A DNA stretch of 64,000 nucleotides from Bacillota bacterium. Its GTDB lineage: Bacteria > Bacillota > Clostridia > Oscillospirales > Oscillospiraceae. This document shows, in pieces, positions 12,967 to 26,223 of the stretch. The number at the start of each line of letters is the position of its first letter. The first letter of the stretch is position 1. The stretch lies in the NCBI GenBank assembly GCA_030535235.1, contig JAUNCL010000001.1, forward strand, positions 13,518 to 77,517. The letters are read 5' to 3'. The translations under genes and the position numbers were made by a program. The notes under the pieces are model-generated. The model worked only from the letters and a program-made list of their open reading frames with translations, ran no database searches and had not been told where the DNA came from.

Positions 12967-14430
12967 TTACCACGTCAGGTTGCAGCACAGTACAAGACTG
13001 AAAATGGCGTACAGCCCAGTCAGTCCAACCACGCCTTTCCTGAACAGGCACTTCCTGTTTTGCGGTATTTCCTCCCACCATTTCGCCAGAAATACCGCAC
13101 CGATCAGGGCAGTTGGCACAACATACCGAAAATCCATGGTACAGCCAAAGGGATATTGGATGTTGAAATTAATATAGGACCCCATCAACACCAGCCAGAA
13201 GCAGATCAAGACTGTCCATTGAGCCGTGCGATGCCGGATCAACACAAGAGCCATTGCCGCAAGGCTGAGCAGGATCAGCAGCAGATTGATAAGAATCAGC
13301 AGACCCGGGATAACTTTCCCCATGTTAAACGAAAATTCGCCAAATAATGATCCCTTTAACAAGTAGGACCATACATTGTAATCTTCAAATGGATGGTCGT
13401 AAATCTCAAAGTTTTTGATCAGCCCGAATCGTTCCCAAAGGCTATAGCCTCCACAATAAACCTCCGATTCCTCTGATATCCGCAGCACGTAATTGAACGG
13501 CTGTTGGAACAGGATTAGGTTCCGAATGGGATACCACAGCCCCAGCGGGAAGGCGATCAGGCCAAAGACGACGAATTGCCGGATAATCGGCAGCCCATTC
13601 TTTTCCCGGAGGCGGCGGTACAGGACCAGAATCATCACGCAGCCGGTGACCAGGGCAAACACGCCGACAGAGATCTTCGTCATCATACCCAGGCCAAAGC
13701 AGAGAGCCAGCTTCACCAGCGCTCCCCATTCCTGCCGCTTATACCACCGGAGCGTGTAGTACAGAATGGCCGTCATGAACATGACCGCCAACGAATCGTT
13801 GTTCACACGACCGGCCAGGAGATAGTGGTTGGGCAGGAAGGCCGCCAGGCTAACAGCGATCAATGTCGCCTCGTCGCTCAGGCGCAACTGCCGGCACAGA
13901 TTGCGGGCATAGAACAACGTCACAATAGACGCAGCACAGGATACGGTCTTAGCTGCTTCCAGCAACTGTCCGGGATCGGAAAAGCCGCTCAGCGCCCGGT
14001 AGCAAGCCATCGCAATGGCAGAAAGCGCATGGAAAAGCGGGGGGTGATAGAACTGGTAACTGTTGTTGGGCGGCAGCTCTCCCTGCAGCAGATGCAGAAT
14101 ATAGGCCACGTGGCCGTTGCTGTCCAAAGAGCACTTCCCCAAATCATGACCCCGCACGTATGCCGGGGTATAAAGCATGTATCCCACACGCATCAGAATC
14201 CCCAGCACGAGAATCAGCCACAGGAAGATCTCGCTTCGGTCCAGTTCCGGATGCGTCAGCATGATCCAGACCGCGGCGCCAACCATGATCAATACCCCAA
14301 CCTGCATGAGCAGTTGGATCGTCAGTGTGTGGGTTGCCAAAACAGTGGTGAATACTGCGTAAAAAGCGATCAGCATCAGCAGGCAGGAGCCTGCCGCTGC
14401 AATTCTTTCAACGTTTTCTTGCTTCTTCAT
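12967..14430 (-). CDS. GT-C fold integral membrane glycosyltransferase (GT39/ArnT/PMT-like)
   Basis: Multiple TM segments, [31 protein letters not shown]. Confidence 0.75.
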
Positions 14431-15970
14431 GCTGTACCTCTTCGTGATACTCCGATCCGGTATTCACGTTCCACACGCTCTGCTTGTCATAAGAACCGGA
14501 GACGATGGACTGCACCGCCGCGAAGGCCGTCTCCATGGAGTGGTCCATGTTGTTGTAGCGGTGCTGGCCGTTGCGGCCCACACAGAACAGGTTTTGGATG
14601 CCGTCCAGATACTCCCGCAGCTCACCCAGCCGTTCGTAAGTATCAAAGTAGGCCGGATAGGCCTTCCTGACCCGCTCCCTGTGCCAGTCCAGCACCTTGC
14701 TGTTTTCGTCCAGCACGCCGATCTGCTTTAGTTCTCTGACGCTCAGTTCTCCGCATTCCTGTTCGGAGAGGTTCCAGAAATCGTCACCCTCCTCACAGAA
14801 GAATTCCACGCCCAGCCAGACGGTGTCTTCCGGCTTTTCCACCAGATAGGGGGACCAGTTATTGAACACCTGGATGCGGCCCATCTTCACGCCGGTGTCC
14901 TGCACGTAGATCCAGCAATCCGGAATGATGTTGTTCATCGTCAGCAGCTTCGTCTCGTTCTGCAGAGCCAGCCGGTCCACCAGAATACCCATGGTGACGA
15001 AATCCCGGTAGGGCAGACCCTCGGCGACATCCCGAATCTCCTGGGGCACATCGTCCATTCCCGACACCAGGTCTTTCAGCGGCATGGAAGAGATCACGAT
15101 CTCGCCGTCGTAGAGCCGGCCGCCGGCTTCCACGCCCACCGCTTTTCCATTTTCCACCCGAATCTTGTCCACGCAGGCGTGGCGCACCAGCTTTCCGCCC
15201 ATGCGCTCTACCTCTGCCGCAGTGGTCTCCCACAGCTGACCGGGGCCGAACTTGGGATAGCGGAAGGATTCGATCAGCGATGTCTCCACATGGCCGGTGT
15301 CCTTGCTGCCGAAGGTCTTCCGAAACACATCCGCAATCAAAGCGCGGATAGACAGGCCCTTGACCCGCTGGGCGCCCCAGTCCGGAGCAATAGCGCTGGG
15401 ATGCCGGCCCCACAGCTTCTCCGTGTAGCCCTCAAAGAACATGGAGTAGAGCACTTTTCCGAACCGGTTGATGTAAAAGTCCTCCAGAGAGCGTTCTTCC
15501 CGCTTGAATATAGTCCCCCACAGGTAACTGCAACCTGCCCGTACGGTGGTGACAAGTCCCATATTGATGAAGGTCTGGGGCTTCATGGACAGCGGATAAT
15601 CAAAAAAATGCCGCTGATAGTAGATGCGGGATACGCGGTTTCGCATCAGCATCACCCGGTCCTCTTTGTCCGGATCCGGGCCGTTTTCTGCCACTGCGCA
15701 GGGACGGCCCAAGACCTTGTCATCGTAAGACGGTGAACCCTGATCGGGCATCATGTCTTCCCACCACTTGCAGACCTGGGGATCCTTTGAGAAGAATCGG
15801 TGGCCGCCGATATCCATGCGGTTGCCGCCGTGGCAGACCGTGCGGGAGATACCACCCACTGTTCCACTCTCCTCCAGGACCGTCACATCATAGTCCTCGC
15901 CGCTGCGCAGCAGTTCATAAGCTGCGGTCAGACCAGCCGGACCTGCGCCGATAATCACAACTTTTTTCAT
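14408..15970 (-). CDS. FAD-dependent oxidoreductase of the Glf/HemY superfamily (UDP-sugar mutase-like)
   Basis: IIGAGPAGL Rossmann motif, [39 protein letters not shown]. Confidence 0.8.
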
Positions 15971-16002
15971 AGTTCTCTCTCCCGAATTCTATATTGGCCC
16001 GC

Positions 16003-16413
16003 TTATCTCCGATAGATCCAGAGTTTCCGGACAAAATAATTCCATGCAAACACCAGAATAGTTGCGAAGATCTTTCCTGCTATCTTCGCCAGCCCCACCA
16101 TCTGGACAAACAGGTACATCAGCAGCAGATTGAGCAGCAGACCGATTACGCTGACCGCGTAGATCTTCGCAAGCTCCTGCAAAACGTGCTGCTTTTCCGC
16201 GCCCCGAAACGTCAGGAGCCGTCCCGCCAGCCAGTTGGCGGCGGTGGAGATGGAAAAGGCCAGCACGGTGGACATCAAATAGTGGATATGTGCCTGATAG
16301 GAAAACATGTAAAAGCAGACCCACTCCACAATCGTTGCAATCCCGCCAACGACTAAATAGGAGAACATCTGGCGAAACCCCTGGCTGTTCAACAGTATCT
16401 TCAAGTTCATCAT
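16003..16413 (-). CDS. GtrA-family flippase
   Basis: About 136 aa, 4 TM segments, YLVVGGIATIVEW, WNYFVRKLWIY. Confidence 0.85.
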   Translation of the reverse strand: MMNLKILLNSQGFRQMFSYLVVGGIATIVEWVCFYMFSYQAHIHYLMSTVLAFSISTAANWLAGRLLTFRGAEKQHVLQELAKIYAVSVIGLLLNLLLMYLFVQMVGLAKIAGKIFATILVFAWNYFVRKLWIYRR

Positions 16414-16584
16414 GTACCCATCTCTCTGTTACAATTTCCTGCTGGTTTATAAAATGCGGTTAAAGCCAGCGGATAATCAAGTCCCAGCACAATTCCATAA
16501 GGCAGGCCGCCGTGCAGTTCGATAACCGGAACCATGAAAGCAGGGGGCTTAGCCAGTTTTCCAACTGTGGTTGCTGTTAGATTT

Positions 16585-17790
16585 TCAAGTATTTCTTTTT
16601 CCTGTGCAGGGGATTCCTTCTTGTGTTTTTTCTATCATACCGGGTTGATACTCTTTTTTCAAAAAATAGATATATGCACAGTATAAAAACAGGTTTGCAC
16701 ATGTTAAGAAAGACCAGTTTCCGGAAATCCCAAATAAATATATTCCGTATGTATTCATGCTGATGGCAAGCAAACCCGTACACAGAGGGATCGTCTTCGG
16801 GATCAAGATTGCTAAAATAATTGCCAATACTTCGTACAGATATCCGTATCGTTCGTGCATGGACGGCAAGAATAGTACGCACGTATACACCAGCAGGAAC
16901 GCCATCATCCACAGATTCTTCCCTGTTGGCGCGTAAGCTTTCCTGATCCACCAAACCATCAGCATTGCCAAAACAAATACTGCCACAATAATGGCAGCAT
17001 TTTTCAGGTATGCATATTGTGTCTGTTCCTGCGCCTGACACAAAAGCAGCCACGGAGACGGGTAATTCATTGACATCGCCTGATACGTACCGGTTTGATT
17101 GAAATAAATTTTAACTACCTCAGTCAGACTTCTCCCCCACAGGACGATGGGCGATGACAAAATCGCCATGGTACAAGGAACAAGCAAAAACCGGGCGGCA
17201 GAAAACTTCCGCTCCGTGAAATACACAAACAGGAAGAGCGGCAGTACAAATACAGCCTGCAGCTTAAATGCAAAACTGACCCCCAAAAAACACATCGCCT
17301 TGTTATACTGTTTTCTTTCCAAATGCAGGATAGCCAACAGTGCAAAAGCACTGTAAATCGCATCGCATTGTGCCCATGCCGCCGAGTTCAGAAAAACGAT
17401 AGGAGACAGCAGCACCGCGCAATATGCAAGGCACCCGGCCCATTCTCTCTCTTGCGTTGAGATGCGGCGAACGATCACGCCGGCAGTAATTGCAAGGACC
17501 CAGTCAAAAACGCACGAACAGATCTTATACGCATATAGAGAGGGGATCTGTATTTTAGTCAATATCCAGATGATGAATTGATAGAGGAAATTGTAGTCGC
17601 CAACCTGTTGGGACAATCCGTTGGCGGAGATCAAGTTATACCACGGCAGCAGAAAGATATTGTAATCGTCGCTGACGATCTCCCGCAGCGAAACCCGGAC
17701 GGCAATTCCCAAAAGCGTACACAAAGCCGCCAGCAAAAGCGGAAGGTGCCGGTCCGCGAAATCAAGAATTCTCTTTTCAAATTTGGTCAT
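16585..17790 (-). CDS. GT-C fold membrane glycosyltransferase (mannosyltransferase/GT87-like)
   Basis: Polytopic membrane protein with SDDY, GDYN, NSAAWAQCDAIY, FKLQA and HERY motifs. Lower GC than its neighbours. Confidence 0.65.
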   Translation of the reverse strand: MTKFEKRILDFADRHLPLLLAALCTLLGIAVRVSLREIVSDDYNIFLLPWYNLISANGLSQQVGDYNFLYQFIIWILTKIQIPSLYAYKICSCVFDWVLAITAGVIVRRISTQEREWAGCLAYCAVLLSPIVFLNSAAWAQCDAIYSAFALLAILHLERKQYNKAMCFLGVSFAFKLQAVFVLPLFLFVYFTERKFSAARFLLVPCTMAILSSPIVLWGRSLTEVVKIYFNQTGTYQAMSMNYPSPWLLLCQAQEQTQYAYLKNAAIIVAVFVLAMLMVWWIRKAYAPTGKNLWMMAFLLVYTCVLFLPSMHERYGYLYEVLAIILAILIPKTIPLCTGLLAISMNTYGIYLFGISGNWSFLTCANLFLYCAYIYFLKKEYQPGMIEKTQEGIPCTGKRNT

Positions 17791-17806
17791 AGACGCTCCT
17801 TATTGC

Positions 17807-18223
17807 TCATACAGATCGCTTTCCCCGAAACGCAAAGAACCGCTGCCCCAGGTAATTCAGGCCGGTATACAGGCACATGCCCACCAGCATCGCTATATTC
17901 TCCTGAACGCGCACAGCCTGTCCTTCCAAAAGCCGCATCACAAGGGGCTTTGCCAGACCGTATCCCAGCAGGTAGCATACTGCGACATTGAGCGCGAATT
18001 TCCACACCTGTGCCCATTCCCACTTTTTGTTCTCAAACGTAAAATATTTGTTCAGGAAAAAGCTCACGATCCCGCCGACAATATAGTTGGCGGCAGAAGA
18101 AACCCAGTAGGAGCAGTGGGCCAGATTATACAGCAGGAACATTGTCCCGCAACCAACCAACGTGTTAAACACGCCTACGATCAAAAACTTGAAAAGTGTG
18201 TTATCCTTCCAGTTTATCCTCAT
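17807..18223 (-). CDS. GtrA-family flippase
   Basis: FLIVGVFNTLVG, SFFLNKYFTF, NYLGQRFFAF. The GTG start overlaps the upstream stop. Confidence 0.87.
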   Translation of the reverse strand: MRINWKDNTLFKFLIVGVFNTLVGCGTMFLLYNLAHCSYWVSSAANYIVGGIVSFFLNKYFTFENKKWEWAQVWKFALNVAVCYLLGYGLAKPLVMRLLEGQAVRVQENIAMLVGMCLYTGLNYLGQRFFAFRGKRSV

Positions 18224-19188
18224 ACGCGGCCCTCAGAGTTCTTATCATCGAGAATTTCACGGATAATGAAGCGGGGACGGTCCTTCGTCTCCAGATAGAT
18301 CTTTCCGATATATTCTCCGATCACGCCGAGAGACAGCAGGATCAGGCTGCCGATGGCCCACACGGAGCAGATCACACTGGCCCAGCCCGCCACGGTATTG
18401 CCCGCAAACCATTGTACGATAAAATGAATCAGCATCAGGATGCTGATGGCGAAAATCAGAAAGCCCAGCGCCGTGATACACTGCAGCGGCTTTGTGGACA
18501 GGGACGTAATACCCTCCGCCGCAAAAGCCAGCATTTTCTTCAGCGGATACTTGCTCTCGCCCGCGAAGCGCTCTCCCCGCTCATACTCCACCACGCCGGT
18601 CTGATAGCCGATCATAGGCACGATGCCCCGCAGGAAAAGATTCACTTCCTTGAACTGGGCAAGGCCCTCCAGGGTCCGTTTGGACATCAGGCGGTAGTCC
18701 GCGTGGTTGAACACCGTATCAGCACCCAAAAAGCTCATGGCGCGGTAAAAGCTCTCTGCGGTGAATTTTTTGAAGAACGTGTCCTGCTCCCGCGAAGATC
18801 GCACGCCGTACACAATGTCGCAGCCGGCATAGAACTTGTCTATCATCTCGTCCACCGCGCCGATGTCATCCTGCAGGTCCGCGTCCATGGAGATGACCAT
18901 GTCGGCTCTCTCTTTCGCCGTCATCAACCCAGCCAGCAGAGCATTCTGATGGCCCCGGTTCCGGGAGAGATCCACGCCAGAGAATAACGAGTCCTCTTTA
19001 TGTAATTTGCGGATGATGGGCCAGGTCTGGTCCGTCGAACCATCGTTGACAAACAGGACGCGGCTCTCCGGACTGATTTTACCGGACTCTATCAAGCAGT
19101 TCATCTTGTCTTTCAGCCGCCGTGCCGTTTCCGGTAAGACCTCCTGCTCTTTGTAGCAGGGGACCACGATATAAAGAATCGAATTCAT
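18220..19188 (-). CDS. GT2 polyprenol-phosphate glycosyltransferase (GtrB-like)
   Basis: VVPCYKEQE, VNDGSTD, SRNRGHQNAL, SMDADLQD, ADYRLMS, two C-terminal TM segments, GEYIGKIYLETKDRP. Confidence 0.92.
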   Translation of the reverse strand: MNSILYIVVPCYKEQEVLPETARRLKDKMNCLIESGKISPESRVLFVNDGSTDQTWPIIRKLHKEDSLFSGVDLSRNRGHQNALLAGLMTAKERADMVISMDADLQDDIGAVDEMIDKFYAGCDIVYGVRSSREQDTFFKKFTAESFYRAMSFLGADTVFNHADYRLMSKRTLEGLAQFKEVNLFLRGIVPMIGYQTGVVEYERGERFAGESKYPLKKMLAFAAEGITSLSTKPLQCITALGFLIFAISILMLIHFIVQWFAGNTVAGWASVICSVWAIGSLILLSLGVIGEYIGKIYLETKDRPRFIIREILDDKNSEGRV

Positions 19189-19263: not shown

Positions 19264-19294
19264 AAAAGGACCGGGGGTTTCCCCGGTCCTTTTT
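19264..19294. terminator. Bidirectional intrinsic terminator directly after the small peptide gene
   Basis: AAAAGGACCGGGG-GTTT-CCCCGGTCCTTTT. Confidence 0.85.
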
Positions 19295-19341: not shown

Positions 19342-19524
19342 TTAGAAGCTGGGGGCGACGCTGGAGGTGTCGCTGGGGTCGCTGGGGTCGCTGGATTCGG
19401 CGCTGGCGGGTTCGCTGGGGGCGTAGCTGGGGGCGACGCTGGAGGTGGAGTAGGAGTTGGTGATTACATCCTGTGCCTCAAACTTCACCACATCCACAGA
19501 CAGGGCTTCGTACAACTTTCTCAT
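19342..19524 (-). CDS. 60-aa Ser/Pro/acidic-rich peptide; candidate RiPP-type precursor
   Basis: AAAGGAG RBS and ATGA overlap with the peptidase stop. Leader MRKLYEALSVDVVKFEAQDVITN followed by a repetitive Ser-rich core. Last gene before a terminator. Confidence 0.75.
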   Translation of the reverse strand: MRKLYEALSVDVVKFEAQDVITNSYSTSSVAPSYAPSEPASAESSDPSDPSDTSSVAPSF

Positions 19525-19979
19525 ATGCCATTTCTCCTTTCTGAAAGATGGTACAGCTTAAGTAACAAGCTGCGTAATATCGTAAACTGCCACAGCTCCC
19601 GGTACAGACGGTACCCGAAGCCGTCACAGAATACTTCCTTGTCATCCCGGAAAATCCGGGTCACCCGGCCGATAACCCAGTCCGGGGATACGCCGTGTTC
19701 CGGTCTGGTCTGGTTGTCTCCCCACAGGGTCAACCCATTTGGCGTAACCGAGCGTACCCGGTGCAGCACGAATCTGCCGTCGGGGCGCTGATAGAAGAGA
19801 ATGTCGTTTTTTCGGATGGGGGAGTCCAGCCGCCGCAGGGAAACCGAGTCCCGTCCCTGCCGCAGCAGGGGCCGCATACTGATTCCCCGGGGATAAAGCC
19901 GGAATTCACCGCCGGAGGCCAGCACCTCCCGAATCAGGCCGTCGTAGTCTGACAGATGTATCGGCTCATTCAAGGGCAT
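19521..19979 (-). CDS. S24/S26-family serine peptidase, no obvious TM segment
   Basis: RGISMRPLL (catalytic Ser), FVLHRV (His general base as in the SipW/SPC type), WGDNQ, VIGRV. Confidence 0.85.
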   Translation of the reverse strand: MPLNEPIHLSDYDGLIREVLASGGEFRLYPRGISMRPLLRQGRDSVSLRRLDSPIRKNDILFYQRPDGRFVLHRVRSVTPNGLTLWGDNQTRPEHGVSPDWVIGRVTRIFRDDKEVFCDGFGYRLYRELWQFTILRSLLLKLYHLSERRNGI

Positions 19980-20235
19980 CCGCCTCTTTCAGCGCCCCAA
20001 GGAAGCGATTCACATCCCCGCGGGCCGTTTCCTCGCTGACGTCGTACTCTGCAACGATGCGCCGTACCAGCTCGTCCATCGCGATACCCTCCTGCAAAAG
20101 CCGAAAGGCAAAAGCGCCGCTCTCATTCAGGCGCATCATGCCGTTAAAATTCTCGCTGGCCTTCCCAGTGGCTGCCACCACATACTGGATACCCACCTTG
20201 CGAAGAATAAAGCCATCCTTAATTTTCATTTTCAT
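19966..20235 (-). CDS. PqqD-family / RiPP recognition element (RRE) protein
   Basis: 89 aa: MKIKDGFILRKV, MMRLNESGAFAFRLL, IVAEYDVSEETARGDVNRFLGAL. Confidence 0.88.
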   Translation of the reverse strand: MKMKIKDGFILRKVGIQYVVAATGKASENFNGMMRLNESGAFAFRLLQEGIAMDELVRRIVAEYDVSEETARGDVNRFLGALKEADALE

Positions 20236-21163
20236 GTTCCTCTTCCTTTCGTTTCTCCTGTTCGGCTTTTTGCCGGTTTTTCTGACGGGTGGCCTTTGCC
20301 TTGTCCGCCGTACGCTTCTTTTTATACTGGAGCTGCTTATCCTTCAAGGCTTCATACTGCCCGGCGTATTCGGGAAGCTGCTGGGCGTACTCCCAGAACA
20401 GCCACGCCATCCGCCCCCAATACATTTCTGTCCAGGGCTTGCCGTTGCCGTTGAAGTGGAAGATTTTACAGCTTCGCCGAACGCGGTCTTCCTGCCGCTG
20501 ACGGGAAATGTCGTGGTCAAAGCAATTATAGACCCGATAATCCGCGAATTTTGTCAGCCCGTAGAACACCGCGTTCAGCACATCTTGATCGCCGTACTTC
20601 AGTTGCTTGTAGAAAAGCACCGGATACTCGTACAGGATGTTGGGGTCAATCTCCCGCCGCTGCCCAGACAGGTCATACAGCAACGTGCCTGCGTTGAAAT
20701 AGATGGTGTCCCTGGGCAGGGTCAACTGCTCTAAGCGCTTGGGGCCAACCCCTCCAGGACCGTGGCGGTTGCAGGCAACCAGCAGCTTGCCCTCAAAATC
20801 TTGATGATAGAATTCCTCCAGCGAGCCCATGACTACCATGTCCACATCCAGGTACAGCACCCGCTCCACGCTTTCCGGCAACATCTCCTGGGCCAGAAGC
20901 CGGTAGTAAGTCTCCCGGGAAATCCATTTCAGATGCAGGGGTGCGTCCTTGAATTTGTCGGGACCCACCGGCAGGAAAATCGCCTTCGCGATGCCGCTTT
21001 CCTCCGCTACTTGAGAAAACCGCTGGATTTCCTCGGTTTTTAGGTCTGCATAGAGCACATACACCCGGATTTCTCTGCACCATTGGTTGTTCACCAGCAG
21101 CGACTTCAGCAGCACCAGCGCGGGCATGTAGTAGTTGGAATTAAAGGATAACAGTATGTTCAT
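20219..21163 (-). CDS. Glycosyltransferase family 8
   Basis: TYYRLL, VLYLDVD, YFNAG, GDQDVLN, HFNGNGKPW. Likely start MNILLSF at 21163 (ATGA overlap). Confidence 0.9.
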   Translation of the reverse strand: MNILLSFNSNYYMPALVLLKSLLVNNQWCREIRVYVLYADLKTEEIQRFSQVAEESGIAKAIFLPVGPDKFKDAPLHLKWISRETYYRLLAQEMLPESVERVLYLDVDMVVMGSLEEFYHQDFEGKLLVACNRHGPGGVGPKRLEQLTLPRDTIYFNAGTLLYDLSGQRREIDPNILYEYPVLFYKQLKYGDQDVLNAVFYGLTKFADYRVYNCFDHDISRQRQEDRVRRSCKIFHFNGNGKPWTEMYWGRMAWLFWEYAQQLPEYAGQYEALKDKQLQYKKKRTADKAKATRQKNRQKAEQEKRKEEEHENEN

Positions 21164-21882
21164 TCCGGGGTTCCCTCCTTTACCGCCTGGTAGGCGCACA
21201 ATACGGACGCTTCCGATATATCGCAGTTCAGAATATAAAACGGGATTGCGCCAACCAGCTTGTCCGCCATATCCAGAAGCCGCAGCATCCGGTCCGGCTC
21301 TTTCGGCATCAGCAGCTGACGGAACAGCAAATCCACCTTCTGGGCGTTGGTAGCCGGAACAACCTCCGGTTCCCGACTTTGATTCAGGAAAAAGATTGCC
21401 TTCAGGGGAGCCGAATCGTTGCAGCCCAAGCCTTCCTTACCCCGCCAGGGGGTTCCGTAGGCATCAAACCGAACCGTTTCTCCGTCACACACCATACGGA
21501 TCAGGGGCTTGTCCCCGTTGATAACCCGAAGCCGGTGACCGAAATGCTGCTGCCACAGCCGGGTCTGGGTGGTTTTTCCCACGCCGCTGGGGGCGAGAAA
21601 GGCGTATCCTTCGCCATCCAGCTCCACCACAGAGCCATGCATCAGGAAAACATCCCGGTCCAGCAGGGCTGTGGCAGCTTTGCGGTGGCAGCAGACAGTC
21701 TCCAGGTAACCGTCGGGGAATACATCCGTCTGTTTGCTTCGTTCTTCCTCCAGTTCTTCACCGGAAACCTGAATACGTAACTGCGCAGGCAGGTCGGTTT
21801 CATAGCCCCGGCACAGCTCGGTCAGATGAGGGAACTGGTTGTCAAATTGCACGGGAATCCCGGCGAGCAAAACATTAACCAT
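21160..21882 (-). CDS. HprK-related P-loop kinase
   Basis: MHGSVV, Walker A APSGVGKT, INGDKPLIR, YGTPWRGKEG. Likely start MVNVLL at 21882. Confidence 0.78.
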   Translation of the reverse strand: MVNVLLAGIPVQFDNQFPHLTELCRGYETDLPAQLRIQVSGEELEEERSKQTDVFPDGYLETVCCHRKAATALLDRDVFLMHGSVVELDGEGYAFLAPSGVGKTTQTRLWQQHFGHRLRVINGDKPLIRMVCDGETVRFDAYGTPWRGKEGLGCNDSAPLKAIFFLNQSREPEVVPATNAQKVDLLFRQLLMPKEPDRMLRLLDMADKLVGAIPFYILNCDISEASVLCAYQAVKEGTPE

Positions 21883-23005
21883 GTCTTCCTCCTTCTCCAA
21901 AAACCGATCTAAGGTGCTGCCAGAAGGATTTCCCGTGCAGCATCATTGAAATCATACGTACGACCCAGAACACAGGCAGCAGAACGGGCGCTTTCTCCAG
22001 AATCAGGTAGTTCCGCCTCATCTCGGACAGGGGACAGAAAAACCGGGGGAGGCAGTAGGCAAAAACCCGAATTACGGGATTGCGGTACGTTTTACTCAGC
22101 CGCTCCATACGATGATGGGTTCTCATCTCCAGGTAACCGTAAGTTCCGGCAGCGCATACCTCCTGAGCCAGCGGTTCAAGCTCATCAGGAATTGCCTGCC
22201 CGGTTTCAAACCAGCACCGGGACAATGCCTGCACTTGCCGCGACAGTTCCAGAAGCCCCAGCGTTTTCAGCTCCCCTTCCAGATAAACCGCGTCCATATT
22301 GGGAAAGCACCGGGCGTAGATGCAGTTATCCAGAATGGAGCGAATACCGCTGCCGCTCTCGGACAGGTGACTGCTCAGATGGACAAGATAAAATAGGTAC
22401 TCATCCTCCGGTTTCAGCATGTACAGCCTGGGTGTCCCCTCCACGGGTATCGCCTTTTCCCAAATGTTTTGATAATAACCAGCGTGTTCATCGGTCTCGG
22501 GCAGGAGAAAGACATGCAGCTCCACCTCAGTATAGGGAGGCTTGAGGTAGGCGGTGTGATGGAAACAGACCTCTTCCTTCCGATAACCCATAGACAGCAG
22601 GACACGTTCCGCCAGAGCTGCGTCCCGGAGATGGATGAGCATATCCAGGTCCGACATCTGCCGGTCGTTGATATCCGGATACCGTTCCTTCAGCCAGCAG
22701 CCCTTTACCGGCATCACATCAATTCCGGCGGCTGTCAGATTCCGAATAATGTCGTCCCGCGCCTGAAGCTGGACAATGCTCTGCGCCAGCAGCAGATTGA
22801 CCCGGTTTTCCCATTGCTTCCAGACCGGATCATCCGGATCGGCGATCAACGGGCAAAGTTCCCGAAATATCAGTGCTTCAATAGAGTGGCTTCTGGAAAA
22901 GTCAAACAGTTCCTGTAGCGATAATCCTTCCGGAACCGGTGGAACCGGTTGTTCCTGCACCAGCGCCCGGATCAGGGATATGGTATAATCAGCAGTTTTC
23001 GTCAT
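21875..23005 (-). CDS. Uncharacterised nucleotidyltransferase (NTP_transf_5-like)
   Basis: PVKGCWLKERYP, RQMSDLDMLI, EVELH, YLVHLSSH. Likely start MTKTADY at 23005. Confidence 0.85.
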   Translation of the reverse strand: MTKTADYTISLIRALVQEQPVPPVPEGLSLQELFDFSRSHSIEALIFRELCPLIADPDDPVWKQWENRVNLLLAQSIVQLQARDDIIRNLTAAGIDVMPVKGCWLKERYPDINDRQMSDLDMLIHLRDAALAERVLLSMGYRKEEVCFHHTAYLKPPYTEVELHVFLLPETDEHAGYYQNIWEKAIPVEGTPRLYMLKPEDEYLFYLVHLSSHLSESGSGIRSILDNCIYARCFPNMDAVYLEGELKTLGLLELSRQVQALSRCWFETGQAIPDELEPLAQEVCAAGTYGYLEMRTHHRMERLSKTYRNPVIRVFAYCLPRFFCPLSEMRRNYLILEKAPVLLPVFWVVRMISMMLHGKSFWQHLRSVFGEGGRHG

Positions 23006-23030
23006 GGCGTTCCTGTATCCTTCCATTGTT

Positions 23031-23777
23031 TCAGCTGCGGTATGCGTTCTCATACATACGATACACTTCTTCCGTATCCCCAAATGCCATCATTTGACCG
23101 TGATCCAGCCAGATTGCTTTGGGGCAAAGCGCCTTAACCTGCTCCGCGCTGTGGCTGACGAACAGCAGTGTTGTGCCGCCGTCCAGCAGTTCCGCAATTT
23201 TCCTATGGCATTTTTCCCGGAAACGGAAGTCTCCCACAGCCAGCACCTCATCCACAATCAGGATGTCCGCCTTGATAATCGTCGCGATGGAAAAGCCCAG
23301 ACGGGCTATCATACCGGAAGAATAGTTTTTCAGCGGCACGTTGATGAATTCCCGCAGTTCGGAGAACTCCACAATTTCCTCAAAGTGCTGATCCATGAAT
23401 GCCCGGTTATATCCCAGAATGGCGCCGTTCATGTAGATATTTTCCTTCGCAGTCAGTTCCATGTCAAACCCGGCTCCCAGTTCGATCAAGGGCGCGATGC
23501 TCCCGTTTACTGTCACAGTGCCTTCCGTGGGATACATGACCCCTGCCAGAATTTTCAGCATCGTACTCTTGCCGCTGCCGTTTTTTCCAATCAACGCTAC
23601 GGCTTCTCCCCGTTTGACTTCAAAGGACACATTCCTCAGCGCATAGAATTCATTAAAATGCAGTTTCCCGGTGACCAGCTTCACAAAATATTCCTTAATG
23701 GTATCTGTTTTCTGCTCTGCAAGATTGAACCGCATGGCAACGCCGTTCACTTCTATAATCGTATCTTTCTTATCCAT
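23031..23777 (-). CDS. wzt: Polysaccharide ABC exporter ATPase (Wzt/TagH type), short form without a C-terminal carbohydrate-binding domain
   Basis: GKNGSGKST, LIELGAGF, YSSGMIARLGFS, IVDEVLAVGD; 248 aa. Confidence 0.92.
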   Translation of the reverse strand: MDKKDTIIEVNGVAMRFNLAEQKTDTIKEYFVKLVTGKLHFNEFYALRNVSFEVKRGEAVALIGKNGSGKSTMLKILAGVMYPTEGTVTVNGSIAPLIELGAGFDMELTAKENIYMNGAILGYNRAFMDQHFEEIVEFSELREFINVPLKNYSSGMIARLGFSIATIIKADILIVDEVLAVGDFRFREKCHRKIAELLDGGTTLLFVSHSAEQVKALCPKAIWLDHGQMMAFGDTEEVYRMYENAYRS

Positions 23778-23789
23778 GAGGTTTTTTCC

Positions 23790-24581
23790 TTACACGAAGA
23801 GGATGAAATTGCGCTGGAGCTTTCGGAAAACCAACACTCCCACCGTCAGCGACAGCGCGCTGAACCCGAAGCATCCGACCCAGTGTATTGCCGTGGGGAA
23901 TATGCCATACAGCACAACCTCCCGGAAGAATGTCACGTAATGATACATCGGGTTGAAGCGGATGAGAAAAGCAACCCATTCGGGCAGTGCGCTGACGGGG
24001 TAGAAAATAGGTGTCAAATACATCCATGCCATTACCAGAACGCTGTACAAATGCAACATATCCCGGAAGTAGACTGCCAGCGCCGACAGCACCATTCCCA
24101 CGCCCATACAGAATAGCAGCAGCAGAGCCAGAGGAATCGGGAACAGCAGCAGATTCCAGGTCAGCGGCACTCTGGTCAACAGCATTACAATCAGGATCGC
24201 AACGAGACTGAAACTCATGGTGACAAAGCTGGACAAGACCCGCGATACAGGAAAAATGTATTTGGGAATATAAACCTTTCGAATCAAAGCTCCGTTATAG
24301 ATGACAGAGGTCATGGCCATATTTGTGCTTTCATTAAAAAAGGACCATAGCGTCTGTCCGCAGATCAGGTACAGCGGATAATTCTGAATTTTGAAGCGGA
24401 ACATATAGGAGAATACCAGAGACATAATGGTCATCATCAGCAGCGGGTTCAAAAGGCTCCAGATATATCCCAGAAAGCTTCTGCGGTATTTAATTTTCAG
24501 GTCCCGCACCACAAGCTCACTCAGCAGGGGCTTATATCGGTTAAAGTGCTGAATTGTTACGGCGGCTTCAAGGGATTTCAT
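23790..24581 (-). CDS. wzm: Polysaccharide ABC exporter permease (Wzm/TagG type)
   Basis: RDLKIKYRRSFLGYIWSLLNP, YLTPIFYP, FNPM. The ATG at 24581 has a GAAGGAG RBS. Confidence 0.92.
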   Translation of the reverse strand: MKSLEAAVTIQHFNRYKPLLSELVVRDLKIKYRRSFLGYIWSLLNPLLMMTIMSLVFSYMFRFKIQNYPLYLICGQTLWSFFNESTNMAMTSVIYNGALIRKVYIPKYIFPVSRVLSSFVTMSFSLVAILIVMLLTRVPLTWNLLLFPIPLALLLLFCMGVGMVLSALAVYFRDMLHLYSVLVMAWMYLTPIFYPVSALPEWVAFLIRFNPMYHYVTFFREVVLYGIFPTAIHWVGCFGFSALSLTVGVLVFRKLQRNFILFV

Positions 24582-24641: not shown

Positions 24642-24670
24642 ATTATATCTATTTTTTTATGTAAAATCAA
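24642..24670 (-). promoter_or_regulatory. sigmaA promoter of the wzm-to-peptide operon
   Basis: TTGATT-N17-TATAAT on the minus strand. Confidence 0.65.
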
Positions 24671-24951: not shown

Positions 24952-26223
24952 TTAAGGCATAGCCGCGCAATCTTCTACGACATACATCTCACAGCGTCCA
25001 TCAGCACAACAGAAGAAATGCTTATGGTCGCTGCACCATCCGATGCGACTGTGATTTGCTTCGATAACAGTCTTACCATCATAAGTGATAAGACCTTCTT
25101 TGTAGCTGTCCTTTTCACCAACTCTGACAGTGAGATATGGATCCTTGCGCCCATGGATTTCATGGTAGATAGCAGGAATGATGATGTTGCCATCGTAGTC
25201 TTTCATGCCTTGTTTGCCGTTTTCTACGAAGCAAATTCTCTGCCGTTCATGGTAGAAGCCATTCCAAGGGACATCATAGATGCAGGGGAGGATCTCGTTA
25301 CCCTCCTTATCGATCAAACCATGTCTGGTACCGTCCTTATCGCGGATAACCACTTCATATGGATCATGCCAGGTATAGATCGAGGAATATATGGATTTGA
25401 AACGCTCCTTGCCGGATGGGGCAATGATCTTTTCAATCGTCCGGCCGAGTTCTTTATCGAAGACCTCAACTTCCATATCGCCGTTATCGTGGAAGGTGAC
25501 ATCAAGGAATTGGGGCTCGAAGAGGACTCTCTTTTGTGATAGATCATAGATGCCCATGGGGAGATCATCGCCCGTTGCATCCGGATCTTCAGCGTAAAAC
25601 AGGATTCTGTCCTTCCAGGTTTCATAAGAGAAACCTTCAAAGGTTGGTTCTGCGAGCCAGTTACCCTTGCAATCAACGACACCCCACTTACCATCTTTCC
25701 AACCACCATAATGGACCATGAACATATCAGAACGATCGGAGAAATGCTTGATCTCATCGAAGATAAAAGGAATAACCTCATTATCGTTTTTATCGATGGC
25801 TCCCCAGAGTTCTTCTTCTGTCCAATAACGGCCCTGATTGTATTCATTATCCCATTTGGGGTCAATTGTCCACTTGCCCTTTGCAACGATGGCGATACCA
25901 TTTTCAAAGTCAGTAGCATAGATATACTGGGGAGGAATAACCTCCTCGCCGGACTCATTTACAAAGCCCCAAGTACCTGCAATTTGATCATAATCCGAAT
26001 GATACGCCAAATCCATGAAGCGAAGCTTGAGCGTAGATACGCGACACATTCCTTCGGAATAATCGCCGATTTCTTGATAATTATCCTGTCGAATTCTGCC
26101 ACCAATCTCAAGCTCACAGCCATTTGGATCAACACAAAGCCACTTATCTCCGAGCTGCACTTTTGCTTTGCCGTCTCTGAAATCGTCAGCCTGATCATAC
26201 TTCATCGGAACAACGAACTTCAT
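24952..26223 (-). CDS. WG (KWG)-repeat protein; probably the 3' half of a frameshifted gene
   Basis: Repeats WGFVNESGEEVIPPQY, WGAIDKNDNEVIPFIFD, WGVVDCKG, GLIDKEGNEILPCIYD. The frame extends upstream of the ATG as YGFVDKD-M. Confidence 0.8.
   Translation of the reverse strand: MKFVVPMKYDQADDFRDGKAKVQLGDKWLCVDPNGCELEIGGRIRQDNYQEIGDYSEGMCRVSTLKLRFMDLAYHSDYDQIAGTWGFVNESGEEVIPPQYIYATDFENGIAIVAKGKWTIDPKWDNEYNQGRYWTEEELWGAIDKNDNEVIPFIFDEIKHFSDRSDMFMVHYGGWKDGKWGVVDCKGNWLAEPTFEGFSYETWKDRILFYAEDPDATGDDLPMGIYDLSQKRVLFEPQFLDVTFHDNGDMEVEVFDKELGRTIEKIIAPSGKERFKSIYSSIYTWHDPYEVVIRDKDGTRHGLIDKEGNEILPCIYDVPWNGFYHERQRICFVENGKQGMKDYDGNIIIPAIYHEIHGRKDPYLTVRVGEKDSYKEGLITYDGKTVIEANHSRIGWCSDHKHFFCCADGRCEMYVVEDCAAMP

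Follow-up and report, generated by a model that had tools for sequence, protein, structure and literature searches.

The eight-gene unit considered here lies on the minus strand (positions 24581–19342) of a 64 000 nt stretch of DNA, hereafter the window, from a gut Clostridia bacterium of the family Oscillospiraceae (assembly GCA_030535235.1, contig JAUNCL010000001.1, positions 13 518–77 517). Its genes, all eight of which were confirmed as open reading frames (ORFs) on the window, are arranged in the order wzm, wzt, nucleotidyltransferase, HprK-like kinase, GT8 glycosyltransferase, PqqD-type recognition element (RRE) for peptides that are ribosomally synthesised and then modified after translation (RiPPs), S26-type peptidase and a 60-residue peptide. 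On sequence comparison we consider it probable (approximately 80 %) that the unit is a cluster of the linear polyphosphorylated peptide (LPP) type, found here in gut Oscillospiraceae with an undescribed accessory configuration, and that it matures and exports a phosphopeptide or phosphoglycopeptide. LPPs were described in May 2026 from the lppA-K-B-S-D-N cluster of Paenibacillus alginolyticus DSM 5050 (Popov et al., Nat Commun 2026; PMC13381572), and the cyclase-less lasso-like core remarked on in a first-pass annotation of this DNA now has that published precedent. The unit is not a new kind of system.

Core enzymes and their LPP counterparts

All four core proteins of the window are detectably homologous to LppB, LppK, LppN and LppS. 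Comparison by phmmer with the ORFs of the P. alginolyticus lpp locus gave E 4.5e-10 for the nucleotidyltransferase against LppN, E 1.9e-8 for the kinase against LppK and 6.2e-9 for the peptidase against LppS; in a separate comparison the RRE showed a weaker similarity to LppB (E 1e-5; 30 % identity over 47 residues). Alignment of the peptidase family profile to LppS using hhalign gave a probability of 98.6 % (E 1.4e-15) and places S34, H73 and E94 of the window protein on the LppS catalytic residues S29, H68 and D93. The family models matched here (Table 1) recur in Supplementary Data 2 of the LPP paper, which lists NTP_transf_5 (PF14907), PqqD and TIGR02228 (PMC13381572). Clostridial peptidases are also present there, in minor similarity clusters (PMC13381572); the window peptidase falls outside the main similarity cluster, and its nearest entry is a Ruminococcus protein of minor cluster 9 with 41 % identity.

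Each of these assignments can be examined further at the level of motif and fold. The translated nucleotidyltransferase shows a G-x16-DLD motif, and the Walker A motif of the kinase, PSGVGKTT, is invariant across the family alignment. An AlphaFold model of the kinase (pLDDT 93.6) has HprK/P (E 2.7e-6) and ATP-dependent phosphoenolpyruvate carboxykinase as its top Foldseek matches, such that, by predicted fold and homology, the gene is predicted to encode an HprK-like kinase. For the RRE, matches to lasso PqqD chaperone models were obtained with scores under their cut-offs, and the sequence matches in the PDB are TbiB1 (E 9e-4) and PbaB1 (9x90; E 0.03). In the peptidase, S34, H73 and E94 are invariant in 15 aligned family members, and the 150-residue family has further invariant GxSMxP, HR, GD and Glu positions. 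Its family profile matches signal peptidase I and SEC11A/C in the PDB, with a predicted fold of the S24/S26 type that matches LexA, SEC11A, SipA and SpsB. Direct PDB sequence searches with the peptidase and with the kinase returned nothing meaningful, only profile, hhalign and predicted-fold comparisons being informative.

The same combination of genes is found well beyond this genome. Several hundred close homologues of the kinase-like protein are present in gut metagenomes, with Candidatus Limivicinus sp. and Oscillospiraceae as the named sources, and the contigs that carry them always combine a nucleotidyltransferase, a ScmC-like protein, PqqD, the 150-residue protein and a short ORF. The gene order itself recurs in many metagenome contigs at 59–87 % protein identity, and the arrangement is therefore not a matter of chance. 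At greater distance, the ScmC-like, PqqD and 150-residue genes are adjacent in 13 of 20 loci of the same order. A scan of the genome contigs with the kinase sequence alone gave no confirmed related locus. Separately, distant ScmC-like homologues of about 30 % identity occur in order-level genomes without the peptidase and the nucleotidyltransferase (L040–L048), and radical-SAM proteins make up 5 of the 82 ORFs neighbouring the more distant order-level ScmC-like homologues, so the kinase-like protein also serves further peptide pathways in the order.

Enzymes expected of a lasso pathway are missing from the unit and the genome. There is no match to PF13471 (B2 protease) in the genome, a 2.25 Mb draft of 51 contigs that is 97.7 % complete, and its one gene of the Asn-synthase family (PF00733), which scores 627 bits where the cut-off is 499, encodes the housekeeping AsnB. 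The unit contains no radical-SAM genes. No cyclase is present in the roughly 25 related loci inspected, nor is there one among the 25 commonest families listed for the 82 neighbouring ORFs of the 20 order-level loci, although a single one could escape such a list.

A conserved leader and a free-running core

The 60-residue peptide has no match in Pfam or NCBIfam; its gene begins within an ATGA overlap and is preceded by an AGGAG ribosome-binding site. Alignment of 68 homologues reveals a leader that is always 22 residues long, with the consensus M-[KR]-K-x-Y-x-x-L-S-V-D-V-V-K-F-E-A-Q-D-V-I-T. The RRE-binding motif YxxP appears in this leader as the variant YxxLxV, and the Thr at −1 and hydrophobic residue at −3 agree with those of LppA. 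The cores, by comparison, are different in every one of the 68 homologues, ranging from 14 to 51 residues, with no Cys, a net charge of −1 to −9 and an abundance of Pro, Gly, Ser, Thr, Glu and Asp. This pairing of a conserved leader with a free-running core is the hallmark of RiPP precursors, and the small ORF is therefore under selection. Only one feature of the core is nearly constant, namely a Ser at core position +2 in 67 of the 68 homologues, which lies at +3 in the remaining one.

By LPP precedent, this Ser is the predicted phospho-acceptor, and cleavage is predicted after Thr-1 (Thr22). Two alternatives were considered. A kinase acting on the C-terminal Ser, as in paeninodin, was rejected, as the C-termini vary (the commonest last residues being Leu, Arg, Met and Ser) and the Ser at +2 hardly varies. 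The lasso rule, by which the cut would precede Ser24 and Thr would be at −2, was judged less likely, since LPP precedent would have it after Thr-1.

Variation amongst close relatives of the precursor was also observed. In a near-identical assembly the same precursor (protein P0242) has one extra PSYA unit in its core (64 rather than 60 residues), and core repeat number therefore varies between close strains. One locus of the most abundant variant (L077, 7450–7572) encodes a shortened core (...SGAVTTQEPPPQPWTTG; 40 residues in all), in which the precursor is possibly frameshifted or decaying.

Proposed pathway

The favoured pathway would begin with binding of the 60-residue precursor by the PqqD-type RRE through the conserved leader, after which the HprK-like kinase would add one or more phosphates to the invariant Ser24 (core +2). 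In P. alginolyticus, LppK adds up to four phosphates to core Ser3, and diphospho-Ser is the main species made by the LPP kinase (PMC13381572). The next step, addition of a sugar to that phosphate, would fall to the PF14907 nucleotidyltransferase, probably with the help of the GT8 encoded in the operon. Here the LPP precedent offers less guidance, as LppN was inactive in a heterologous host, with an unidentified partner outside the core cluster suspected by the authors, and neither the final product nor the roles of the nucleotidyltransferase and of LPPs themselves have been established (PMC13381572). Glycosylation of the peptide by the nucleotidyltransferase and GT8 is plausible by analogy with pseudomycoidin, where the PF14907 enzyme is needed for addition of a hexose to phospho-Ser.

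Removal of the leader would follow by RRE-guided cleavage after Thr22, performed by a soluble or peripheral Ser/His signal-peptidase-like enzyme. LppS (S29, H68, D93) cuts after Thr-1 only with the RRE LppB present and prefers the phosphorylated precursor, and its N-terminal helix docks on the RRE–leader sheet (PMC13381572). Finally, the Wzm/Wzt-like ABC-2 transporter of the cassette would export an acidic, disordered phospho(glyco)peptide of 38 residues. Only in the Paenibacillus homologue have polyphosphorylation of the Ser, dependence of the cut after Thr-1 on the RRE and a preference for phosphorylated substrate been demonstrated, and they would extend to the window proteins by analogy; for the sugar, the functions of GT8 and the nucleotidyltransferase, the cargo of the exporter and the biological role of the product, we infer from gene content what the cluster may do. 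The functions that the first-pass annotation gave to the RRE, kinase and S26-like leader peptidase agree with the experiments on the homologous P. alginolyticus system (PMC13381572), and its background statements were correct in that paeninodin-type lasso clusters pair an RRE with a Ser-directed HprK-like kinase, and that a nucleotidyltransferase is linked to hexose addition in pseudomycoidin.

Several observations weigh against an LPP-type assignment. Identity to the published proteins is low, at about 21 % for the peptidase against LppS and 30 % over 47 residues for the RRE against LppB, and the third catalytic residue of the peptidase is Glu in place of the Asp of LppS. The leader has a Leu where LPP and lasso leaders have a conserved Pro, the Ser is at +2 rather than +3, and the spacing from Tyr to the cut is two residues longer in the window. 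In place of LppD, the MsbA-like exporter by which LPP clusters are in part defined, the window has an ABC-2 Wzm/Wzt-like pair. With respect to the glycosylated product, not every member of the clade has GT8, and L079–81 have the ABC-2 pair without it, so that the type of exporter is not strictly tied to a sugar on the cargo.

Layout of the unit

The unit is bounded by a promoter-like site and a strong hairpin (Table 1). The 106 nt stretch that contains this hairpin folds at −37.4 kcal/mol (z = −5.2), and none of 200 shuffles folded as well; a simple terminator scan missed the hairpin because part of its U-run sits within the stem. Gene starts were refined by reading the sequence at the junctions. 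With these starts, overlaps are present at all five junctions from the nucleotidyltransferase through to the peptide: 8 nt between nucleotidyltransferase and kinase (ATGGTTAA), a shared ATGA between kinase and GT8, 17 nt between GT8 and PqqD, 14 nt between PqqD and peptidase (8 nt if the TTG start is used) and a second shared ATGA between peptidase and peptide. The nucleotidyltransferase does not overlap wzt with either of its possible starts. The structural claims of the first-pass annotation thus hold: a single minus-strand unit runs, in the stated gene order, from the promoter to the terminator, every junction from the nucleotidyltransferase to the peptide overlaps (exactly so with the refined starts) with ATGA at two of them, and no gene for a lasso cyclase, a B2 protease or a radical-SAM enzyme is included.

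Directly upstream, and outside the unit, lies a gene for a WG-repeat protein of 423 residues (PF14903, E 1.1e-39; 24952–26223, minus strand) with its own hairpin terminator at about 24795–24765.

Table 1. Features of the cluster and its flanks in the window
Feature	Position	Strand	Refined start	Evidence or remark
Sigma-70-like promoter, TTGATT-17-TATAAT	24642..24670	-		Upstream of wzm; 10/12 positions match
ABC-2 permease, Wzm-like, 263 aa	23790..24581	-	24581	PF01061 (ABC2_membrane), E 1.6e-22
ABC ATPase, short Wzt/TagH-like, 248 aa	23031..23777	-		PF00005 (ABC_tran), E 4.4e-21
Nucleotidyltransferase, LppN/PsmN-like	21875..23005	-	23005 (or 23026)	PF14907 (NTP_transf_5), E 3e-41
HprK-like P-loop kinase, 240 aa, LppK-like	21160..21882	-	21882	ScmC family: TIGR04249, E 8.7e-8; PF27840 (from precomputed hits)
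GT8 glycosyltransferase, 314 aa, Lys/Glu-rich tail	20219..21163	-	21163	PF01501, E 3.8e-36
Discrete RRE, PqqD family, 89 aa, LppB-like	19966..20235	-	20235	PF05402, E 3.3e-15
Putative leader peptidase, archaeal-type (Ser/His) signal-peptidase-I-like, 150–152 aa, LppS-like	19521..19979	-	19979 (or TTG at 19973)	TIGR02228, E 3.2e-5 (weak)
Precursor leader, residues 1–22: MRKLYEALSVDVVKFEAQDVIT	19459..19524	-	19524	15/22 positions invariant in 68 homologues
Precursor core, residues 23–60 + stop: NSYSTSSVAPSYAPSEPASAESSDPSDPSDTSSVAPSF	19342..19458	-		Predicted phospho-acceptor Ser24 (core +2)
Intrinsic-terminator-like hairpin	about 19264..19294	-		13-bp G+C-rich stem, U-run
GT2 (PgfS-like), GtrA, GT87-like GT-C, UGM-like flavoprotein and PMT_2 GT-C genes; possible extension of the unit	12967..19188	-		Family matches

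The exporter and GT8 as parts of the cassette

The permease has the galactan exporter Wzm/RfbD as its best NCBIfam match (94.9 bits, under the cut-off of 380), and the ATPase scores 226.8 bits against TagH (cut-off 538), 200 against Wzt/RfbE (cut-off 400) and 126.7 against DrrA, all under the equivalog cut-offs. These scores put the exporter nearer to the pumps for teichoic acids and galactan than to drug or peptide ABC-2 pumps, and the ATPase is without a C-terminal carbohydrate-binding domain. The window Wzm is the only copy in the genome, no Wzm homologue at E ≤ 1e-10 was found in any of 39 same-genus genomes, and the same eight genes, at 73–87 % identity, are located between pilus and adhesin genes with no adjacent glycan genes in two other loci (L051 and L073). 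The permease shares 83 % identity with its counterpart in L051, where the flanks differ; the ATPase is 84–86 % identical to the copies in L051 and L069. The ABC-2 exporter is therefore the cassette's own, and a host glycan exporter was rejected as an explanation for it. The earlier view that RiPP machinery had been fused into a glycan-export operon is not borne out, as the exporter came with the cassette; that the ABC-2 pair and GT8 belong to the unit is sustained, both moving with it into unrelated flanks.

The GT8 gene lies between the kinase and RRE genes, overlapping both and coupled to the former by ATGA, and its translation shows DVD and HFNGNGKPW motifs. At its C-terminus is a tail of roughly 35 residues that is rich in Lys, Arg and Glu (KKKRTADKAKATRQKNRQKAEQEKRKEEEHENEN; 20219–20320, minus strand), which could bind a very acidic phosphopeptide or the membrane.

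Across the related loci, GT8 is present in the window, L026–28, L051, L069, L070 and L073–78, and absent from L022–25, L049, L050, L071–72 and L079–84. The ABC-2 pair accompanies GT8 in the window, L051, L069 and L073–78, and occurs without it in L079–81; conversely, GT8 is found without any pump in L026–28. An MsbA-like pump (ABC_membrane and ABC_tran) without GT8 is carried by L022–25 and L050, and neither pump nor GT8 is present in L049, L071–72 and L082–84. These accessory states are interspersed on a concatenated tree of the four core proteins, and gains and losses have therefore been frequent. A rule confining the ABC-2 pair to loci with GT8 was true of the first five loci and was rejected because of L079–81. 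Both Wzm/Wzt and GT8 are optional members of the cassette.

Glycan genes downstream of the cassette

On the same strand, directly after the cassette terminator, are genes for GT2, GtrA and a GT87-like protein of the GT-C glycosyltransferase class (16585–19188). The GT2 is closest to the Streptococcus protein-glycosylation enzyme PgfS (216.8 bits, below the cut-off), and taken together the three resemble a three-component system that would glycosylate outside the membrane. They intervene in the window between the cassette and homologues of two further genes, a PMT_2-type GT-C and a flavoprotein, which directly follow the eight genes in L069 and in the most abundant variant (L075–78; 426 index blocks). 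The window homologues are 30 % (PMT_2) and 59 % (flavoprotein) identical to these. The flavoprotein (14408–15970, minus strand; 520 residues) belongs to the PRK07208 family (742 bits), and its best solved relatives are UDP-galactopyranose mutases (UGMs) of the eukaryote type (E 1.8e-15), not those of the bacterial Glf type.

Cores that are rich in Ser, Tyr and Pro and contain 'APSYAPSE' are found in exactly those loci with downstream GT-C and UGM-like genes (the window, L069 and L075–78). As this association derives from about two independent lineages, it is a lead and not a result.

Hints of mobile-element activity surround the cluster in L076 and L078 (630–1862, 9070–10345), where a serine-recombinase gene is located upstream of the cassette and the UGM-like gene is cut to 249 residues beside TnpV.

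Alternative explanations

One alternative, that of the first-pass annotation, is that the peptide is the primer or carrier of a surface glycan, with a cytoplasmic Ser-(P)n-sugar being extended, exported by Wzm/Wzt in the manner of an undecaprenyl-diphosphate-linked polymer and retained as a component of the surface or matrix rather than released as a diffusible product. The affinity of the exporter for TagH and Wzt over DrrA accords with this, as does the translational coupling of GT8 within the operon, and the diphospho-Ser of LPPs, once capped with a sugar, would resemble a lipid-diphosphate-sugar head group. Downstream GT-C and UGM-like genes accompany 'APSYAPSE' cores in both the window and the most abundant variant, and the LPP clusters of Bacilli are often situated in capsule loci, leading their authors to speculate on biofilm (PMC13381572). 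Against it, the unit has a single cytoplasmic glycosyltransferase and no polymerase, chain terminator or initiating (phosphoglycosyl) transferase, its Wzt is without a glycan-binding domain, and the peptide shows no visible signal for anchoring. In close relatives that have the same leader the pump is MsbA-like or missing and GT8 is lacking, the ABC-2 pair is itself also found without GT8, and the association of GT-C and UGM-like genes with core type represents only about two independent lineages. On balance we regard a glycan primer as unlikely, and a surface-glycan role is speculation.

It is more improbable still, to the point of being a marginal prospect, that two functions merely share one transcript, with Wzm/Wzt and GT8 serving neighbouring cell-wall glycan genes and the RiPP genes being an inserted passenger. 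Glycan genes are certainly plentiful in the window (those for GT2, GtrA, GT-C proteins, Glf and a protein like O-antigen ligase), and its Wzm is the only one in the genome. Nevertheless, the occurrence of all eight genes between pilus and adhesin genes in L051 and L073, away from any glycan neighbours, and the absence of Wzm from the same-genus genomes, which means that it is not a housekeeping gene of the lineage, run counter to this view; moreover, GT8 is placed between the kinase and RRE genes with overlapping codons, and the strong hairpin separates the unit from the GT2–GtrA genes. Scarcely any weight is given to a true lasso pathway with a cyclase and a B2 protease that escaped notice or have their genes at another place. 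Such a pathway might be suspected from the likeness of the leader to those of lasso peptides, from the best scores of the RRE, which are to lasso B1 proteins, and from the draft state of the genome (51 contigs). The lack of PF13471 and of any Asn-synthase homologue other than AsnB in a genome of this completeness speaks against it, as do the related loci and commonest neighbour families, in which no cyclase was seen. Its acidic cores of variable length likewise have no conserved ring position, although an acceptor Asp or Glu would still be possible.

An LPP-type phospho(glyco)peptide cluster therefore remains our preferred explanation, and a tentative elaboration of it, possible but doubtful, concerns the nature of the product. 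Diphospho-Ser, when capped or extended with sugar by the nucleotidyltransferase and GT8, may mimic an undecaprenyl-diphosphate-linked glycan, and if so this head-group mimicry would be the reason that an ABC-2 pump of the teichoic-acid/O-antigen type was recruited. In 'APSYAPSE' lineages the peptides may be further glycosylated outside the membrane, with the co-travelling GT-C enzymes using the furanose from the UGM-like mutase on the exported Ser/Tyr/Pro-rich peptide. What emerged would be an anionic glycoconjugate carried on a peptide and belonging to the cell envelope or the matrix, and, were this true, the partner and the final product that eluded the LPP authors would both be provided by this cluster.

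The cluster would carry LPP-type chemistry over from Bacilli of the soil to gut anaerobes that are common, and the natural operons of this abundant clade include ones in which GT8, a candidate partner for LppN, is coupled at translation to the kinase and RRE genes. The hypothesis of a sugar on the phosphate is directly testable with such a compact gene set.

Relation to known systems

Comparison with characterised families indicates how parts of the cluster resemble, and depart from, several others. The paeninodin and pseudomycoidin lasso clusters share with it an RRE, an HprK-like kinase acting on a precursor Ser, a PF14907 enzyme and a similar RRE-binding leader motif. The window system is distinguished from them by having neither a macrolactam cyclase nor a B2 cysteine protease, by the serine peptidase that is predicted to take off the leader in their stead, and by a predicted acceptor near the N-terminus of the core, as opposed to the C-terminal Ser of the lasso peptides. 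Like SynChlorMet (Scm) systems, in which ScmC accompanies ScmD, it has a PqqD protein alongside a kinase-like protein whose best score is to ScmC; that score is, however, 31.8 bits against a cut-off of 125, and the unit has no radical-SAM/SPASM genes (ScmE/ScmF). The peptidase possesses the GxSMxP, HR and GD motifs, the Ser/His pair and the S24/S26 fold of SipW/Sec11-type (S26B) signal peptidases, but has an N-terminal amphipathic helix instead of a membrane anchor, and its presumed substrate is an RRE-presented leader peptide rather than a Sec signal peptide. Similarly, the exporter is a two-gene pair of permease and ATPase with its best family scores to Wzm/Wzt and TagGH, yet these scores fall far short of the equivalog cut-offs, the pair lies inside a RiPP cassette with which it is co-transferred, no lipid-carrier initiating enzyme is encoded in the unit, and the presumed cargo is a peptide.

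LPP clusters, finally, are defined by this core of enzymes. Both they and the window cluster are without a cyclase and near glycan genes, and both have a Tyr-containing leader that ends in Thr, a conserved Ser soon after the cut, a variable core and a discrete PqqD-type RRE gene, which in the window overlaps that of the peptidase. The host is a Clostridial bacterium (Oscillospiraceae) rather than a member of the Bacilli, and the leader motif is YxxLxV...DVIT-x-S where that of LPP precursors is YxxPxV...FET-xx-S (in full, YxxPxVLxHQxIxFETxxS; PMC13381572). Cores of the window family are strongly acidic, as opposed to the Gly/Asn/Lys-rich LppA. The text of the LPP paper makes no mention of Clostridia, ABC-2 or Wzm; ABC2_membrane appears only twice in its neighbourhood table, and GT8 was not found in the part of that table that was examined (PMC13381572). 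GT8 lies within the window operon, and both it and the Wzm/Wzt-like pair are outside the LPP clusters as published. By sequence, then, the window cluster is placed as a distant Clostridial member of the LPP-like group and not as an unknown system, with its built-in GT8 and glycan-type pump representing an undescribed version of the LPP-type cluster.

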